From Rhodoferax sp. (lineage in GTDB: Bacteria; Pseudomonadota; Gammaproteobacteria; Burkholderiales; Burkholderiaceae_C): DNA of 64,000 nucleotides. The number at the start of each line of letters is the position of its first letter. The stretch's first letter is position 1. Positions 4,647 to 26,817 of the stretch are shown here, one piece after another. The notes under the pieces were generated by a model that was not told the DNA's origin, searched no databases, and saw only the letters and a list, made by a program, of their open reading frames with translations. The position numbers and the translations under genes are program-made. Where the stretch lies: contig JBILPS010000004.1 in assembly GCA_044373655.1 (NCBI GenBank), positions 6,902-70,901 of the forward strand. Reading direction: 5' to 3'.

Positions 4647-5717
4647 TCAACGCACCCCTTCGCGCGTCGGAGCCAAGGCCAGCATACCGGCGCTGTCAAA
4701 CACATACACATCCTGCGGCCGGAAATAGACCGGCATGGCATCGCCCAAATCAAAGTAGTGCACACCAGCCAGCTGCGCCACCATGGCGCCCAGGGCGGTA
4801 TCCAGATGCACAAAAGTATCCGAGCCAGAAATTTCGGCCAGCGCTACGCTGGCCTGGACCGCAACATCACCTTCACGGGCCTGTACGCGCAGTGCGCTGG
4901 CACGCAAACCGGCCGTGACCGGGCCAACGGGCAAGGCACTTGTGAGTATGACGCTGCTGGCATCGGCCAACACCAGCGCCTGGTCCTGCACCCTAGCGGG
5001 AAAGAGATTCATGGGCGGATCACTGAAAGCCGTCGCCACCCGTATCGAGCGGGGCCGCTGAAACACCTCTGCGGTGGGGCCGTACTGCAGCAATTCGCCC
5101 GCGTCCATCACGGCGGTGTAACCGCCCAATAACAAAGCCTCGCCCGGCTCCGTGGTGGCATAGACCACAGTGGAATTGCCCGCCGCGAACAAAGCGCTGA
5201 GCTCGTCGCGCAACTCTTCGCGCAGCTTGTAGTCCAAATTGACCAGCGGCTCGTCCAGCAACATCAAAGGTGCGCTTTTGGCCAGCGCCCGCGCCAGCGC
5301 GACACGCTGCTGCTGCCCCCCAGACAACTCCGAGGGGTAGCGCTCCAAAAACATCTCAATATGCAGCTTGTCCGCCAGCGCATGCACCCGCTCGCGCACG
5401 CCGGTTTCGCCGCGCAAATGCAGCGGTGAGGCAATATTGTCAAAAACCGTCATGGACGGGTAATTGATGAACTGCTGGTAGACCATGGACACATTGCGCT
5501 GTCGCACTGGCACGCCGACGACGTCCACACCGTCCACCACGACGCGCCCGGTGCTGGGCACATCCAAACCGGCCATGATGCGCATCAAACTGGTTTTGCC
5601 CGCTTGGGTGGCGCCGAGCAAGACGGTGACCGCATCCGGACGCAGGTCCATATCCAATGCATACAGCCAGGGCTGCGCACCTACTTTCTTGCTTACTGCT
5701 CGCAGACTTAAGTCCAT
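4647..5717 (-). CDS. glpS: Glycerol ABC transporter ATP-binding subunit
   Basis: Degenerate Walker A GATQAGKT typical of GlpS, LSGGQQQR signature, LLDEP. Confidence 0.88.
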   Translation of the reverse strand: MDLSLRAVSKKVGAQPWLYALDMDLRPDAVTVLLGATQAGKTSLMRIMAGLDVPSTGRVVVDGVDVVGVPVRQRNVSMVYQQFINYPSMTVFDNIASPLHLRGETGVRERVHALADKLHIEMFLERYPSELSGGQQQRVALARALAKSAPLMLLDEPLVNLDYKLREELRDELSALFAAGNSTVVYATTEPGEALLLGGYTAVMDAGELLQYGPTAEVFQRPRSIRVATAFSDPPMNLFPARVQDQALVLADASSVILTSALPVGPVTAGLRASALRVQAREGDVAVQASVALAEISGSDTFVHLDTALGAMVAQLAGVHYFDLGDAMPVYFRPQDVYVFDSAGMLALAPTREGVR

Positions 5718-5724
5718 CTGACAC

Positions 5725-5840
5725 CCTTGATCGTTCGCACCAATTTAGCGCAACGTTAATTCGAATGTGAGAATTATTGTTCGAAATTATTCGTTTTAAC
5801 TAGGTGTTTACCCTAAAACTATTCCTTTCGGTTCGATTTA
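5725..5840. promoter_or_regulatory. Divergent glpS/glpR promoter region with probable GlpR operator half-sites
   Basis: AT-rich; TTCG cores at about 5733, 5760, 5780, 5790, 5827 and 5832 (e.g. TGTTCGAAATTATTCGTT), resembling GlpR operators (ATGTTCG-type). Confidence 0.55.
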
Positions 5841-5883
5841 AAGTGCAGAAGGCATTTTTATCCAAGGCTCGGACACTCTACGC

Positions 5884-6651
5884 ATGAACCCTAATCCACG
5901 ACAAATCAAGCTCTTAAGCGTAGTGCGGGCGCAAGGTTCGGTCACGGTGGAACGCCTGGCCGATACGCTGCAAGTGACGCTGCAAACCGTACGCCGCGAC
6001 GTCCAGCGCCTGGCCGACGAGGGCCTGCTGGCGCGTTTTCATGGCGGCGTGCGCGTGCCGGGCTCCACCGTGGAAAACCTGGCCTATCCGCAGCGCGAAA
6101 TCCTCAACGCGCTGGGCAAAGCACGTATTGCACGTGCCGTAGCCGATGCCGTACCCAATGGCTGCTCGCTGCTGCTCAATATCGGCACCACCACCGAGGC
6201 CATCGCCCGGGCGCTTACCAAGCACGAAGGCTTGCGGGTGATTACCAACAACCTCAATGTGGCCGCCATCCTCAGCGCCAATTCGCAAAGCGAAGTGATT
6301 GTGGTGGGCGGCGTGGTGCGCGGACGCGACCAGGGCATCGTGGGGGAAGCGGCGGTGGACTTTATCCGCCAGTTCAAAGTGGACATCGGCCTGATCGGCA
6401 TCTCGGCCATCGAATCGGATGGCTCGCTGCGCGACTTTGACTACCGCGAGGTGAAGGTGTCACAAACCATCATTTCCCAAGCGCGCGAAGTCTGGTTGGC
6501 GGCAGACGCCAGCAAATTCAACCGCGCTGCGATGGTCGAAGTAGCGCAGCTCTCCAGCATCGACCGCCTGTTCTCGGACGCCATTGCGCCCGAGCCCTTT
6601 ATGGACCTGATGGCCCAAGCACAGGTACGATTTACCCTGGCGGGCGACTGA
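5884..6651 (+). CDS. glpR: DeoR-family glycerol-3-phosphate regulon repressor
   Basis: N-terminal [12 protein letters not shown]...RFHGG, DeoR C-terminal NIGTTTE motif; adjacent to glpK. Confidence 0.92.
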
Positions 6652-13650: not shown

Positions 13651-13684
13651 AATAAAAACGGCACCTGAGGGTGCCGTTTTTATT
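13651..13684. terminator. Bidirectional intrinsic terminator between glcB and the convergent ABC ATPase gene
   Basis: AATAAAAACGGCACC-TGAG-GGTGCCGTTTTTATT, a perfect 15-bp stem with A/T tails on both sides. Confidence 0.9.
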
Positions 13685-16173: not shown

Positions 16174-17054
16174 TAGCCAGCCTTGAACAATCCATCGGGC
16201 TTCCACAGCAAGATGACCGCCATCAAGACATAGACCAGCACGCCGGCCACCTGCGGCACCAGCACTTTGCCAAAGGTATCGACTACGCCGATCAGCAAGG
16301 AGGCCAGCAGCGCGCCCCGTATCGAGCCAATGCCGCCGATCACCACCACCACAAAGCAAATAATCAGCACCAAACTGCCCATGCCCGGATAGACCGAGGA
16401 CACGGGCGCGGCCACCATGCCGGCCAACACCGCAATCGCCACCCCGGCGGCAAACACCACACGGTATAAAAACTTGATGTCAATGCCCAGCGACTGCACC
16501 ATTTCGCGGTTGGTGCTACCCGCGCGAATCATCATGCCCAGCCGGGTTTTGGCAAATACAAAGTACATGCCCAGCGCCAGCAAGAGGCACACGCCAGAAA
16601 TAAACAGGCGATACACCGGGTAGGTCATCATGTCACCTAGCGGGATGCTGCCGGACAAAAAATCGGGCGCCTGCACGCCATGCACATCGTCACCGACCAG
16701 CAGGCTGCGCAATTCTTCGAAGACCAAAATCAGGCCATACGTCATCAGCACTTGTTGCAAATGCTCGCGGGTGTACAGAAAGCTGTAAAACGCCCATTCC
16801 AGCAAATAGCCTAAGGCCACTGCCACCACCAAACCCAATAGCAAGGTGGTGAAAAAACCGCCGCCCACCGTAGCTGCGACAAAAGGCGCCAAGGCAAAAG
16901 CCATGTAAGCGCCAATCATGTAAAAACTGCCGTGGGCCAGGTTGATAACCCCCATGATGCCAAAGATGAGCGTCAGACCGGAGGCCACCAGAAACAGCAG
17001 TAAGCCGTATTGCAGCGCATTAAGGCACTGGATCAGAAACGTAGTGAGGTCCAT
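16173..17054 (-). CDS. HAAT-family ABC permease (LivH-like)
   Basis: ASGLTLIFGIMGVINLAHGSFYMIGAY, VVVVIGGIGSIRGA; start re-called at 17054. Confidence 0.9.
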   Translation of the reverse strand: MDLTTFLIQCLNALQYGLLLFLVASGLTLIFGIMGVINLAHGSFYMIGAYMAFALAPFVAATVGGGFFTTLLLGLVVAVALGYLLEWAFYSFLYTREHLQQVLMTYGLILVFEELRSLLVGDDVHGVQAPDFLSGSIPLGDMMTYPVYRLFISGVCLLLALGMYFVFAKTRLGMMIRAGSTNREMVQSLGIDIKFLYRVVFAAGVAIAVLAGMVAAPVSSVYPGMGSLVLIICFVVVVIGGIGSIRGALLASLLIGVVDTFGKVLVPQVAGVLVYVLMAVILLWKPDGLFKAG

Positions 17055-23554: not shown

Positions 23555-23602
23555 GTACGGGCGCAGCGCCCACCCCCATTTGTAAATTAACTGGAGTCCC
23601 TT

Positions 23603-25030
23603 ATGTCAGCCATCAACTACAGCGAAAAAATTCCCAACAACGTGGATCTGGGCGGCGACCGCACCTTGCAGCGCGCCCTGGAGCAGTGGCAGCCCAACTT
23701 CATCAACTGGTGGGATGACATGGGCCCCGAAGGTACGACGGACAACGAGGTGTATTTGCGTACCGCTGTCAGCGTGGACCCGCAAGGCTGGGCACAGTTC
23801 GGCCACGTCAAGATGCGCGACTACCGCTGGGGCATTTTTCTGAACCACGGCGAGGCCGACCGCAATATCCATTTCGGCGACCACAAAGGTGAGAAAGCCT
23901 GGCAGGACGTGCCCGGCGAACACCGCGCCAATTTGCGCCGCATCATCGTCACCCAAGGCGATACCGAGCCGGCTTCGGTGGAGCAGCAACGCCACCTAGG
24001 CAAGACCGCGCCCAGCATGTACGACTTGCGTAATTTGTTTCAGATCAACGTAGAAGAAGGCCGCCATCTGTGGGCCATGGTGTATTTGCTGCATAAGCAT
24101 TTCGGTCGCGATGGCCGCGAAGAAGCCGAAGCGCTGCTTGAGCGGCGCAGCGGTCAGGAAGACAACCCGCGCATTTTGCAAGCCTTCAATGAAGAAACGC
24201 CTGACTGGTTGAGCTTCTTTATGTTCACCTACTTCACCGACCGCGACGGTAAGTTCCAGTTGTGCGCACTGGCGGAAAGCAGTTTCGATCCGCTGGCGCG
24301 TACTACCAAGTTCATGCTGACCGAAGAGGCGCACCATATGTTTGTCGGCGAATCGGGCATCAGCCGCATTATTCAGCGTACCTGCGCCAAGATGAACGAA
24401 CTCAAATCGGATGACGTGGGACTGCTGCGCGCAGCAGGCGTGATCGACTTGCCGGTCTTGCAGCGTTATTTGAATTTTCACTTCAGCGTCACCATCGATT
24501 TATTCGGCGCCGACGAGTCCAGCAACGCAGCCACGTTTTATTCCACCGGCATCAAAGGCCGCTATGAAGAGACCAAGCGCGATGACGACCATGTGTTGCG
24601 CGGCCAGACCTATAAGGTGCTCAACGTGGTCAACGGCCAGTTGCAGGAAAAAGAAGTGCCCATGCTCAATGCACTCAACGAAGTGCTGCGCGACGACTTC
24701 ATCAAAGACTCGGTCGGCGGCGTAGAACGCTGGAACCGCGTCATCGAGAAAGCCGGTTTACCGCACCGCCTGAGCGTGCCGCACAAAGCGTTTCACCGCA
24801 ACATCGGCGCATTGTCCCGTGCCAAGGTGTCGCCTGACGGGCGCGTGCTGTCAGAGCAGGAGTGGGGCGCCAAGGTGGGCGACTGGTTGCCCACCGCAGA
24901 GGACCGTGCCTTTGTGCAAAGCCTGATGGGCCGGGTGGTCGAGCCCGGTAAATTTGCCAACTGGATCGCCCCGCCGGCCATCGGTATCAACCGCCAGCCG
25001 GTGGATTTTGAGTATGTTCGGTTTAACTGA
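23603..25030 (+). CDS. boxB: Benzoyl-CoA 2,3-epoxidase subunit B (diiron)
   Basis: INYSEKIPNNV, QGDTEPASVEQQ, VEEGRHLWAM, TEEAHH diiron motifs. Confidence 0.97.
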   Translation: MSAINYSEKIPNNVDLGGDRTLQRALEQWQPNFINWWDDMGPEGTTDNEVYLRTAVSVDPQGWAQFGHVKMRDYRWGIFLNHGEADRNIHFGDHKGEKAWQDVPGEHRANLRRIIVTQGDTEPASVEQQRHLGKTAPSMYDLRNLFQINVEEGRHLWAMVYLLHKHFGRDGREEAEALLERRSGQEDNPRILQAFNEETPDWLSFFMFTYFTDRDGKFQLCALAESSFDPLARTTKFMLTEEAHHMFVGESGISRIIQRTCAKMNELKSDDVGLLRAAGVIDLPVLQRYLNFHFSVTIDLFGADESSNAATFYSTGIKGRYEETKRDDDHVLRGQTYKVLNVVNGQLQEKEVPMLNALNEVLRDDFIKDSVGGVERWNRVIEKAGLPHRLSVPHKAFHRNIGALSRAKVSPDGRVLSEQEWGAKVGDWLPTAEDRAFVQSLMGRVVEPGKFANWIAPPAIGINRQPVDFEYVRFN

Positions 25031-25103
25031 TTTGCGCTTTTATTGCTGAAACCGTGGGGCGGCAGAAGATTAGTGCTGCGCGGCATACTGAGCTTCTGAG
25101 CAC

Positions 25104-25396
25104 GCGTGGCGGCAAGGGCAGGCGGGGTTCCTCACACGCAGGCTTAACGTTCGTCACCCCGCCTGCCCCTACCGCCACGCTGCGAACGAGCTTGTCGGTT
25201 CGCCCGCTAATTCGGATTGCGATTGCAGTCGAAAAAAGGTCGAGCTGTTGGGGCTTTCACCGTAACAGCCGTATTTGCCGGGATCTCTATGTACCGCGCC
25301 CCCACCAGCCTTTTCGCAGAGGCTACGCAGGCCGGGGCCGGGCGACGAACGATTAGCCTGCGTTGTGAGGAGCCCGGCCCCGGCCTGCGTGGCCTC
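25104..25396. repeat. Structured intergenic element: two long hairpins with different stems and near-identical loops in inverted orientation
   Basis: Hairpin 1 arms 25104-25127 and 25157-25180 (22/24 paired); hairpin 2 arms 25319-25343 and 25372-25396 (24/25). Loop 1 TCCTCACACGCAGGCTTAACGTTCGTC is the reverse complement of loop 2 GACGAACGATTAGCCTGCGTTGTGAGGA at 25 of 28 positions. Confidence 0.85.
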
Positions 25397-25472
25397 GGGC
25401 TCAGCAAAATAGCAGAACAGCAAGATAGAAATTAAAGACACAATTGCAGTAACGAGACCAAGAAACGATGCC

Positions 25473-26762
25473 ATGAGCACAGATACCGCCGAACTGCTAC
25501 AGCAACACGTGATCGACCCCGAGGTCTGCATACGCTGCAACACCTGCGAAGCTACCTGCCCGGTGGGCGCGGTGACGCATGACAGCCGCAACTACGTGGT
25601 CGATGCAGACAAATGCAACCACTGTATGGCCTGCGTACCACCCTGCCCAACTGGCTCGATAGACCATTGGCTGCCGGTGCTGCGCAGCAAGGCCTACACA
25701 CTGCAAGAGCAGTTGTCCTGGGACGAATTGCCAGCCCCGCAAACCCATGATGCGGCGCAAGACGCTTCCACCATTACGCAGATGTCCGGCAGCACGGCGT
25801 TTGAAACGACCAGCAGCTCCTTGCAAACTGCTACCAGCGCGCAGGCCGCACTGCCGGAGTCCGACAATTGGAGCGCCATGGGTGCCACCCTGCCGCCCTG
25901 GTCCGCAGCGCACCCGTACACCAATTTGCATGGCCCCAAGTCGCCCACTATCGCTACCGTGGTGGGCAATATGCAGGTCAATGAAGCGGGCACCGACAAC
26001 GAAACGCACCATATCGTGCTGGACTTTGGCAGCATGCCCTTTCCGGTACTCGAAGGCCAGTCGATTGGCATCGTTCCGCCCGGTGTCGATGCCAGTGGCC
26101 GGCCGCACCACGCACGCCAATATTCCATCGCCAGCCCGCGCAACGGCGAGCGCCCCGGCTATAACAATCTCTCGCTCACGGTCAAGCGCGTGGTGCAAGA
26201 CCACCAGGGGCAGGCGGTCAAGGGCGTGGCGTCCCACTATTTGTGTGACCTGAAAACTGGCGACGCGGTGCAGGTGATTGGCCCCTTTGGCAGCAGCTTT
26301 TTGATGCCCAACCATCCGGGCAGCCATATCGTCATGATTTGCACCGGCACCGGCAGCGCGCCCATGCGCGCCATGACCGAATGGCGTCGCCGCCTGCGGG
26401 CCAGTGGCAAGTTTGAAGGCGGCAAGCTGCTGCTGTTTTTCGGCGCACGGACGCAGCAGGAACTCCCGTACTTCGGGCCGCTGCAAAAACTACCCCAAGA
26501 TTTCATCGATATCCACTTTGCGTTTTCGCGCACGCCGGGTCAGCCCAAGCGCTATGTGCAAGACGCGATGCGCCAAGCCTCAACGCCCTTGGTCGCCTTG
26601 CTGCAAGACCCGCAAACCCATTTTTATGTCTGCGGCTTAAAAAGCATGGAAGAAGGCGTGTTGCAAGCGCTGCGCGATATTGCGCTGGAGGCTGGCCTGA
26701 ACTGGACCGCACTAAAGCAGGACTTGAAGCAGCAAGGCCGCTTGCAGTTGGAAACCTATTGA
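25473..26762 (+). CDS. boxA: Benzoyl-CoA 2,3-epoxidase subunit A (ferredoxin-FNR reductase)
   Basis: [11 protein letters not shown] and [12 protein letters not shown] ferredoxin motifs, RQYSIAS FAD motif, [13 protein letters not shown]. Confidence 0.97.
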
Positions 26763-26817
26763 GTCATCCTTGGCCAATACCCCCTCATTTACTCCAGAAC
26801 AAAAAATCTCCATTGCA

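Follow-up and report, generated by a model that had tools for sequence, protein, structure and literature searches.

A low-copy family of paired hairpins with conserved loops and covarying stems, found between boxB and boxA in freshwater Comamonadaceae

We describe here two hairpins that separate boxB from boxA, both genes of benzoate degradation, in a 64,000-nt stretch of DNA from Rhodoferax sp. (JBILPS010000004.1; this whole stretch is hereafter called the window, and its positions are used throughout; the focal region is 25104–25396). The two hairpins are members of a real, non-random and previously undescribed repeat family. In kind, the family is nearest to the structured intergenic repeats of the repetitive extragenic palindromic (REP) and bacterial interspersed mosaic element (BIME) type, with the conservation logic inverted (the loop is kept and the stem drifts) and with the units arranged as a bracket that can enclose genes. 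As to what these units do, the reading that we put forward, tentatively and at less than even confidence, is that of a clade-specific, low-copy REP/BIME-like bracket whose active form is a single strand, probably of RNA, that is read via its loop and foot.

Anatomy, distribution and evolution of the units

Hairpin 1 consists of two 25-nt arms (25104–25128 and 25156–25180, 92% complementary on the + strand) that enclose a 27-nt loop, and hairpin 2 of arms 25319–25343 and 25372–25396 (96% complementary) that enclose a 28-nt loop. Both stems are GC-rich and 25 bp long, and the loops are nearly identical and lie on opposite strands; coordinates and folding thus bear out what an earlier note on this DNA, hereafter the original prediction, had described. 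Each strand of the window has exactly one match to the loop motif, GACGAACG-N3-AGCCTGCGT; by chance, 0.29 matches would be expected in total. The two stems had been said to share no similarity, and indeed, when they are compared in register, 12 of the 25 positions agree, which does not differ significantly from the nine or so expected from composition. Common descent of both stems, with compensatory change, is plausible.

The part shared by the two hairpins had been taken to be the loop. The loop is indeed common to both, but the shared part is larger and includes the feet: each hairpin is the core of a unit of about 94 nt, made up of TTCGCA, the 25-bp stem, a loop of 27–29 nt, the return arm and GGGCTCAG. 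Unit A (25096–25187, − strand; 123 bits with the covariance model described below) comprises GTTCGCA, the stem of hairpin 1 (arms 25156–25180 and 25104–25128, in this order), the 27-nt loop GACGAACGTTAAGCCTGCGTGTGAGGA (25129–25155, − strand) and GTGCTCAG. Unit B (25312–25405, + strand; 141.6 bits) comprises TTTCGCA, the stem of hairpin 2 (arms 25319–25343 and 25372–25396), the 28-nt loop GACGAACGATTAGCCTGCGTTGTGAGGA (25344–25371, + strand) and GGGCTCAGC. The units stand 5′ end to 5′ end, each pointing outward, and so form a bracket around a fast-evolving, unstranded centre (25188–25311). A covariance model trained on 24 copies recognized only these two units in the window and a total of 35 units when the window was searched together with the collected loci of relatives (designated L followed by a number). 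The window contains no other repeat family or long palindrome.

We searched for the loop motif in one genome per species (185,579 species) and in the JGI metagenomes, and found it in about nine Comamonadaceae contigs from metagenome-assembled genomes (MAGs) and in 10 metagenome contigs. Ten of the 18 genome-wide matches were rejected as chance matches, as none of them has a flanking stem: nine lie outside the Betaproteobacteria (in Verrucomicrobia, Chthonomonadales, Ahniella, Marmoricola, an unclassified Pseudomonadota, two Acidobacteriota and two Streptomyces) and the tenth in a Rhodoferax MAG. True copies, i.e. those with flanking stems, are confined to MAGs of freshwater Comamonadaceae (labelled Rhodoferax, 'Comamonas sp. 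lk' or Comamonadaceae bacterium) and to lake metagenome contigs. The loop therefore does recur with stems around it beyond the window, as had been anticipated, and the 35 units come from freshwater Comamonadaceae only. Their number is low: a genome fragment set contains at most about six, and unit B has a DNA depth only 2.5–4 times that of its flanks. The window is 90–93% identical to three freshwater Comamonadaceae MAG contigs across the box cluster, and this region recurs in lake metagenomes. Neither the search of viral contigs for the loop motif nor a BLAST search of plasmids and phages with the element returned anything meaningful. The original prediction could assign the element to no named family, and it matches none in Rfam 15, where a search at E ≤ 10 gave only chance matches to microRNA precursors (16–32 bits, for thresholds of 46–100 bits). 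With a host clade as narrow as the uncultured Comamonadaceae of lakes and so few copies, the general importance of the family is uncertain.

Every copy carries (T/G)TCGCA ahead of the stem and GGG(C/T)TCAG behind it. The stems fall into two families, A and B, the latter with at least four variants of the outer 8 bp, and none of the 35 units combines an A arm with a B arm. In the alignment of the 35 units, 97% of the 842 stem cells are paired, compared with 37–46% when the partner is slid by 1–3 columns. Pairing is maintained by compensatory change: both sides are altered in 14 of the 25 stem pairs, and several pairs occur as 3–5 pair types. The original prediction had pictured a conserved loop on interchangeable stems, the reverse of a REP. 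The conserved loop and the changing, covarying stem are both found; the stems, however, are not freely interchangeable, being restricted to the A and B families and to the outer 8-bp sub-variants of B.

The constraint acting on the different parts of the unit was compared by counting variable columns per region in six orthologous box spacers. Variable columns amount to 34% in the left spacer and 39% in the bracket centre (70 of 189 for the two together), to 12–20% in the stem arms, and to only 3.6% (2 of 55) in the loops; the foot of B has none in 16 and that of A has five in 15, and the 67-nt leader that precedes boxA has 6%. The loops are thus about 10 times less variable than the adjacent non-coding DNA. 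They are intact in orthologous box copies whose neutral neighborhood has diverged by about 17%, which argues for a function at each locus and against fossil transposon ends. Judged from these alignments, the loops are under purifying selection in vertically inherited copies. The operon-sense unit, B, is the more constrained of the two at the box locus.

The units also differ in how well their two strands fold. All three stem mismatches of the window become G·U (or G·T) pairs on the strand whose loop reads GACGAAC…GTGAGGA, exactly as had been noted: two in hairpin 1, at stem positions 14 and 16 of unit A, and one in hairpin 2. On this strand the stems are fully paired and the folding energies are −69.2 kcal/mol for hairpin 1 and −73.1 kcal/mol for hairpin 2 (z = −9.6 and −8.7), versus −55.4 and −61.7 kcal/mol on the opposite strand. 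The strand specificity proposed for the element holds across the family, where G·U-type stem mismatches exceed A·C-type ones (17 kinds and 48 cells of the former, 7 kinds and 9 cells of the latter; one-sided test, p = 0.03, which is modestly significant) and G·U-type kinds are common to more lineages. As A and B lie on different genomic strands and show this bias alike, it must be a property of the unit as such, and it indicates that one specific strand folds, be it RNA or single-stranded DNA (ssDNA). We infer that the unit acts as a folded single strand, namely the one with the GACGAAC…GTGAGGA loop. Note that a mini-stem within the loop was considered and rejected, since the observed variants break its pairing rather than compensate.

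The box locus and a variable hotspot

The genes of the cluster are ordered boxR–boxC–boxB–spacer–boxA–paaH-like–pcaF-like, with a benzoate-CoA-ligase-like gene upstream. The bracket lies in a 442-nt spacer, downstream of boxB (23603–25030, + strand), which encodes subunit B of benzoyl-CoA 2,3-epoxidase (NCBIfam TIGR03225, E = 3.6e-268), and upstream of boxA (25473–26762, + strand), which encodes the reductase subunit (NCBIfam TIGR03224, E = 8.7e-213). Bracket units occur in the boxB–boxA spacer of the window and of L006, L009, L013, L023 and L027. By contrast, in related lake populations, as seen in metatranscriptome and metagenome contigs, the boxB stop is only 4–10 nt away from the boxA start, and the populations with this tight junction are far more abundant than the lineage with the 442-nt spacer. 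These empty sites, which the original prediction had proposed to look for, show that the 442-nt spacer is an insertion into a formerly tight boxB–boxA junction. No target-site duplication is visible at the box junction (TGA/TTTGCGC … ACGATG/CCATG), nor at the junctions of the hotspot described below.

The spacer extends beyond the bracket on both sides. To the left of unit A lies A′ (25043–25064, − strand; direct repeat D1, inverted repeat I3), a truncated outer-end remnant, TTGCTGAAACCGTGGGGCGGCA, whose reverse complement is …GGGCTCAGCAA with the first bases of the arm. When the fold of the spacer RNA is predicted, A′ is found paired to the 3′ foot of unit B. The A′ remnant is also found to the left of unit A at the hotspot (L026, L019); being common to both loci, it indicates that the copied block was larger than the bracket itself. 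To the right, unit B is separated from the boxA start codon by an AT-rich leader (25406–25472, + strand), which ends in a two-codon mini-open reading frame, ATG CCA TGA (25468–25476), whose stop overlaps the ATG of boxA. The 6% variable columns of the leader compare with 7% for the end of boxB and 18% for the start of boxA, and there is no obvious Shine–Dalgarno sequence ahead of boxA.

The RNA and population data consist of assembled contigs, which carry no read direction and in which rare variants would be missed. The spacer and its units are covered by metatranscriptome contigs at about the level of boxA. In RNA runs X23–X26, contig depth across 23600–26800 is in the tens to hundreds over boxB and mostly 0–25 over boxA, a ratio that is only suggestive since it is contig-based and mixes lineages with and without the insertion.

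The units occupy only two kinds of site: the boxB–boxA spacer, and a variable hotspot located beside the 3′ end of a gene of the mandelate-racemase/muconate-lactonising family, with radA or a liv-type ABC operon on the other side. Synteny breaks at the hotspot units, the left neighbor being either radA or livF. At both kinds of site the units are mostly A(−)…B(+) pairs whose 5′ ends face each other. The hotspot can be devoid of units, with a 40-nt spacer (L042–L044, whose neighboring gene is 90% identical), or contain a solo B (L011, L018), an empty bracket (L001, L012, L019), a bracket around one AAA_14/DUF4143 ATPase gene (L022, L028), or the arrangement B–gene1–A–gene2–B–A (L021 + L024, L026, L051, L052); the distance between partner units with a gene in between can exceed 1.4 kb. 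In L011 (4652–4654) and in L018, the stop codon of the mandelate-racemase-family gene lies within the foot of the unit, CTCAG being C-TGA-G on the opposite strand. The last four codons of this gene differ from those of the unit-free L042, which indicates that the unit replaced the gene end. In L008 (536–712; radA/racemase-family gene), a unit B has a box-type 5′ arm and 74 nt of box-type centre together with a hotspot-type 3′ arm; it is either a true recombinant of the two loci or an assembly chimera formed across about 60 nt of shared inner stem and loop.

The bracketed AAA_14 + DUF4143 ATPases match the PADLOC candidate defense family PDC-S01 (E = 1e-105). There are two paralogues, 54% identical to each other, with copies at L022:7576–8745, L028:8689–9858, L024:651–1829, L026:1196–2365 and L051:3501–4664 and 5073–6260; pseudogenes with an internal deletion (L021) or truncated at residue 215 (L026) are also present. 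We considered whether the hairpins are the gene's own mobile module and rejected this idea: homologues at 80–86% identity carry no units and lie in unrelated contexts, after purH or hemY, adjoining GmrSD (L054) or ParDE (L039). The bracket centre is not the leftover of a deleted ATPase gene either, as the similarity stops about 27 nt from unit A. Upstream of the DUF4143 genes is an AT-rich inverted repeat, TTTGCAAATTTAAA…TTAAATTTGCAAA (L029:2960–3005, L032:2958–3008, L028:9860–9890), which accompanies the gene in every context and is probably its own promoter or operator. Metagenome contigs that carry DUF4143 (L053, over its whole 1510 nt, and many of P0001–P0035, of 1.4–1.7 kb) typically end inside the loops of the flanking units. 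Palindromes break short-read assemblies, so that the element is probably under-represented in MAGs.

Several other identities were considered for the units and discarded. They are not intrinsic terminators, having no U-tract on either side, loops of 27–28 nt, and tails that read CGGGCUCAG... or CUGCGAA...; for comparison, the window does contain a canonical bidirectional intrinsic terminator at 13651–13684, a perfect 15-bp hairpin (AATAAAAACGGCACC TGAG GGTGCCGTTTTTATT) with flanking A-/T-tracts, between the malate synthase G and ABC ATPase genes. They are not promoters, as no sigma-70-like site is found at the units, nor an invertible promoter switch (inverton), there being no promoter-like site, no recombinase, no mixed A/B arms and, in the contigs, no strand-changing joints. 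Inspected against known consensus sequences, the loop bears no resemblance to a 28-bp dif/Xer-like site or an IHF site, nor to a sigma-54 or BoxR-type operator. No trans target complementary to the loop was found in the 351 kb of sequence examined. Elsewhere in the window, short open reading frames (ORFs) at 2060–2728 and 16690–17019 have a third-position GC content of 0.35–0.49, versus about 0.7–0.8 in the rest, and the two of them that were scanned gave no Pfam match; they may be recently acquired genes, or no genes.

Possible roles of the bracket

A rigid 25-bp helix of free sequence that carries a fixed 27–29-nt loop and fixed feet points to a folded single strand read by a sequence-specific factor. 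Such a factor would read the loop and the foot, and the stem would do no more than hold the two rigidly apart. The whole bracket was copied into the formerly tight boxB–boxA junction, and its working form at this locus would most likely be the operon mRNA. Indeed, an RNA-level role in cis is favored there by the conservation of the orthologues, by the sense unit and leader being the most constrained parts, and by the transcription of the spacer at about the boxA level. Unit B (sense) and the conserved leader would provide boxA with a new 5′ region, and unit A (antisense) would act as a 3′ hairpin for boxB. Together, the hairpins might split the transcript into separately stabilized or processed boxB and boxA segments, a split that could replace the lost translational coupling and set the BoxB/BoxA subunit ratio.

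Several observations weigh against this RNA-level role. The strand bias, besides its modest significance, does not separate RNA from DNA, as ssDNA also tolerates G·T wobbles. The binding factor is putative, and processing at the units is predicted. Unit A is antisense to the operon and yet its loop is conserved, which requires antisense transcription, loop–loop pairing or a role of ssDNA. Units at the hotspot lie in both orientations relative to the neighboring genes, which is incompatible with a single role in a 3′ or a 5′ untranslated region (UTR), and the metatranscriptome contigs give no sign of a build-up of units as abundant RNA. Lastly, decayed copies exist (an L020 B remnant whose palindrome is deleted, the last A unit of L051 with its damaged loop, and the A′ remnants), so not every copy is indispensable.

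The main alternative, possible although on the unlikely side in our estimation, takes the bracket for a non-autonomous element of the mobile or cassette kind, whose outward-pointing units are inverted ends read as folded ssDNA by an enzyme (HUH/Y1-type or other) encoded elsewhere in the genome, with cargo able to sit between the ends. The original prediction had suggested such ends, and this much has held up: the bracket looks like the inverted ends of a gene-less insertion and the same bracket is present at a second locus, the two sites being unrelated and both empty in close relatives. It is always ends-out, whether empty or occupied by one gene or by two genes plus an extra bracket, solo units and truncated remnants exist, and synteny breaks at units (radA or livF on the left). 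The strand-specific G·T bias would fit recognition of ssDNA, and stems that differ from each other would avoid the formation of one unstable palindrome of about 100 bp. The suggested link to an HUH/Y1-type transposase, however, found no support. No HUH/Y1, RAYT, IS200/605, IS91 or other transposase or integrase gene was found in the scanned window ORFs (most ORFs of at least 190 codons), in the scanned hotspot genes or among the precomputed Pfam labels from which the relatives' loci were judged (L051 and L052 included). The two hairpins do not share a strand, no target-site duplication is seen and the boundaries are not sharp: A′ lies outside the bracket and was copied together with it. The units are few: they occupy two kinds of site only, the 64-kb window has two of them and no genome fragment set more than about six; their loops are kept in vertical copies whose neutral flanks differ by about 17%, where dead ends would have decayed; and homologues of the cargo genes occur elsewhere without such hairpins. 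Note that a functional and a mobile reading would be compatible, by analogy with REPs, which are both.

Two further possibilities share the idea of the units as sites of DNA exchange. We consider it rather improbable that an undescribed recombination or transposition system, specific for single strands, recognizes the units by reading the long loop and the foot, not the stem; if so, the bracket would capture and exchange cargo, here candidate defense genes, could be seeded into operons such as boxB–boxA, and would represent a new cassette platform distinct from integrons and from REPIN–RAYT. We give little credence to the units being attC-like recombination sites of a cassette-exchange hotspot, the box copy then being a stray empty bracket. 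What lies between the units does vary in close relatives (nothing, gene1, gene1 + gene2, or pseudogenes), the cargo consists of candidate defense genes found in different islands in other bacteria, and the L008 unit, with its box-type 5′ and hotspot-type 3′ arms, looks like a product of exchange. But this chimera could be an assembly artefact over an exact repeat of about 60 nt, mixed A/B arms were found in none of the 35 units, no integrase gene lies nearby, the units alternate in orientation, and their stems, 97% paired, have neither attC core sites nor extrahelical bases nor an unpaired central spacer.

The loop–loop (kissing) switch put forward in the original prediction, in which the antisense A loop pairs with the B loop, compacts the 370-nt insert and tunes boxA versus boxB translation, is physically possible and, in our view, improbable. 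In RNA of the + strand, the two loops match as complements in 25 of 28 positions, as had been stated, and their duplex has an energy of −42 kcal/mol; in the predicted fold, pairing of 25043–25060 with the 3′ foot of B closes the insert; and conservation is seen in both loops of the box locus. However, the 0–4 positions at which partner loops differ have changed independently, without covariation; solo units exist (L011, L018), and at the hotspot a gene can lie between two units that are over 1.4 kb apart; and pairing would explain why the loops are complementary, not why the same loop sequence is found across all loci and lineages. Equally at odds with that constancy, and in our judgment very improbable, is the view that the units are neutral palindromic DNA or an unusual terminator whose loop is not specifically recognized. 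It would fit with intergenic units that often lie between convergent genes, that form a very stable hairpin on either strand and some copies of which have decayed. But neutral palindromes would not hold a 28-nt loop constant across paralogues, nor keep loops some 10-fold less variable than the adjacent non-coding DNA next to conserved foot motifs, and no U-tract is present on either side, although the genome has canonical terminators.

An oxygenase gene and a reductase gene that are normally in tight coupling have been separated by the element, and the same bracket frames a slot that holds candidate anti-phage genes. It thus bears both on the re-tuning of operon stoichiometry after an insertion and on the organization of defense-gene hotspots.

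Comparison with known systems

Hairpin origins recognized by HUH enzymes include those of geminiviruses, circoviruses and rolling-circle plasmids, with a conserved nick sequence in the loop, and the ends of IS200/IS605 elements. The units described here resemble them in having a conserved single-stranded loop or foot on a variable stem and strand-specific recognition. They differ in that HUH sites have loops of 3–12 nt with a known nick motif, whereas the present loops are 27–29 nt long and contain no known motif, and in being chromosomal and low-copy, with no HUH gene found in the scanned genes. In IS200/605 elements, both sub-terminal hairpins lie on one strand and autonomous copies carry tnpA (Y1) or tnpB; here the hairpins are on opposite strands and neither tnpA nor tnpB was found in the scanned genes.

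The attC sites of integrons are strand-specific, folded ssDNA hairpins of free stem sequence that bound variable cassettes (PMC5027507, PMC7439510). The strand-specific folded hairpin, the free stem sequence and the variable content between sites are all shared with the present units. By contrast, attC sites have R″/R′ core sites (RYYYAAC ... GTTRRRY), extrahelical bases, an unpaired central spacer and a variable terminal loop, whereas the stems described here are 97% paired, without conserved bulges, and their feet are TTCGCA and GGGCTCAG. In addition, attC sites form an array of one orientation beside intI/attI, whereas the present units alternate in orientation, with no integrase in the scanned window ORFs and hotspot loci.

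The Correia elements of Neisseria, ERIC/IRU and RUP/BOX are repeats of the miniature inverted-repeat transposable element (MITE) type that fold in mRNA; such repeats give rise to long transcript hairpins and may serve as substrates of RNase III or affect how neighboring genes are expressed. Like them, the box bracket is a small gene-less insertion with inverted ends between co-transcribed genes. MITEs, however, have conserved terminal inverted repeats, target-site duplications and a high copy number, whereas the ends described here are hairpins in their own right, no duplication is seen and copies are very few.

The closest comparison is with the REPs and BIMEs of enterobacteria and with the REPINs and their RAYT transposases, which are extragenic, GC-rich hairpin repeats (PMC3116915, PMC3337134). 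The inverted pairs, the two types and the linker have their counterparts in the Y and Z REPs of BIMEs and in the REP doublets of REPINs, and REP/BIMEs, like the present units, often lie between convergent genes or within operons, are vertically inherited and are clade-specific. Within operons, REPs stabilize upstream mRNA segments or attenuate transcription. The differences concern number, size and partners: REPs number tens to hundreds per genome and the present units are few in the sequences searched (two in the 64-kb window); the unit, with its 25-bp stem and 28-nt loop, is far larger than a REP; and the cognate RAYT (Y1) gene is typically flanked by the repeats, whereas no Y1_Tnp match was found in the scanned genes and the genes flanked by units here are AAA_14/DUF4143 ATPases, not RAYT. 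Above all, the two differ in what is conserved: a REP or REPIN keeps its stem and a 5′ GTAG-type tetranucleotide and leaves its loop or spacer free, whereas here it is the loop and the foot (TTCGCA and GGGCTCAG, not GTAG) that are kept, while compensatory changes let the stem drift. Structured bacterial repeats are normally recognized by their conserved stem, and the reverse pattern points to a different kind of reader, expected to be a factor that recognizes a long single-stranded loop presented on a rigid 25-bp stem.

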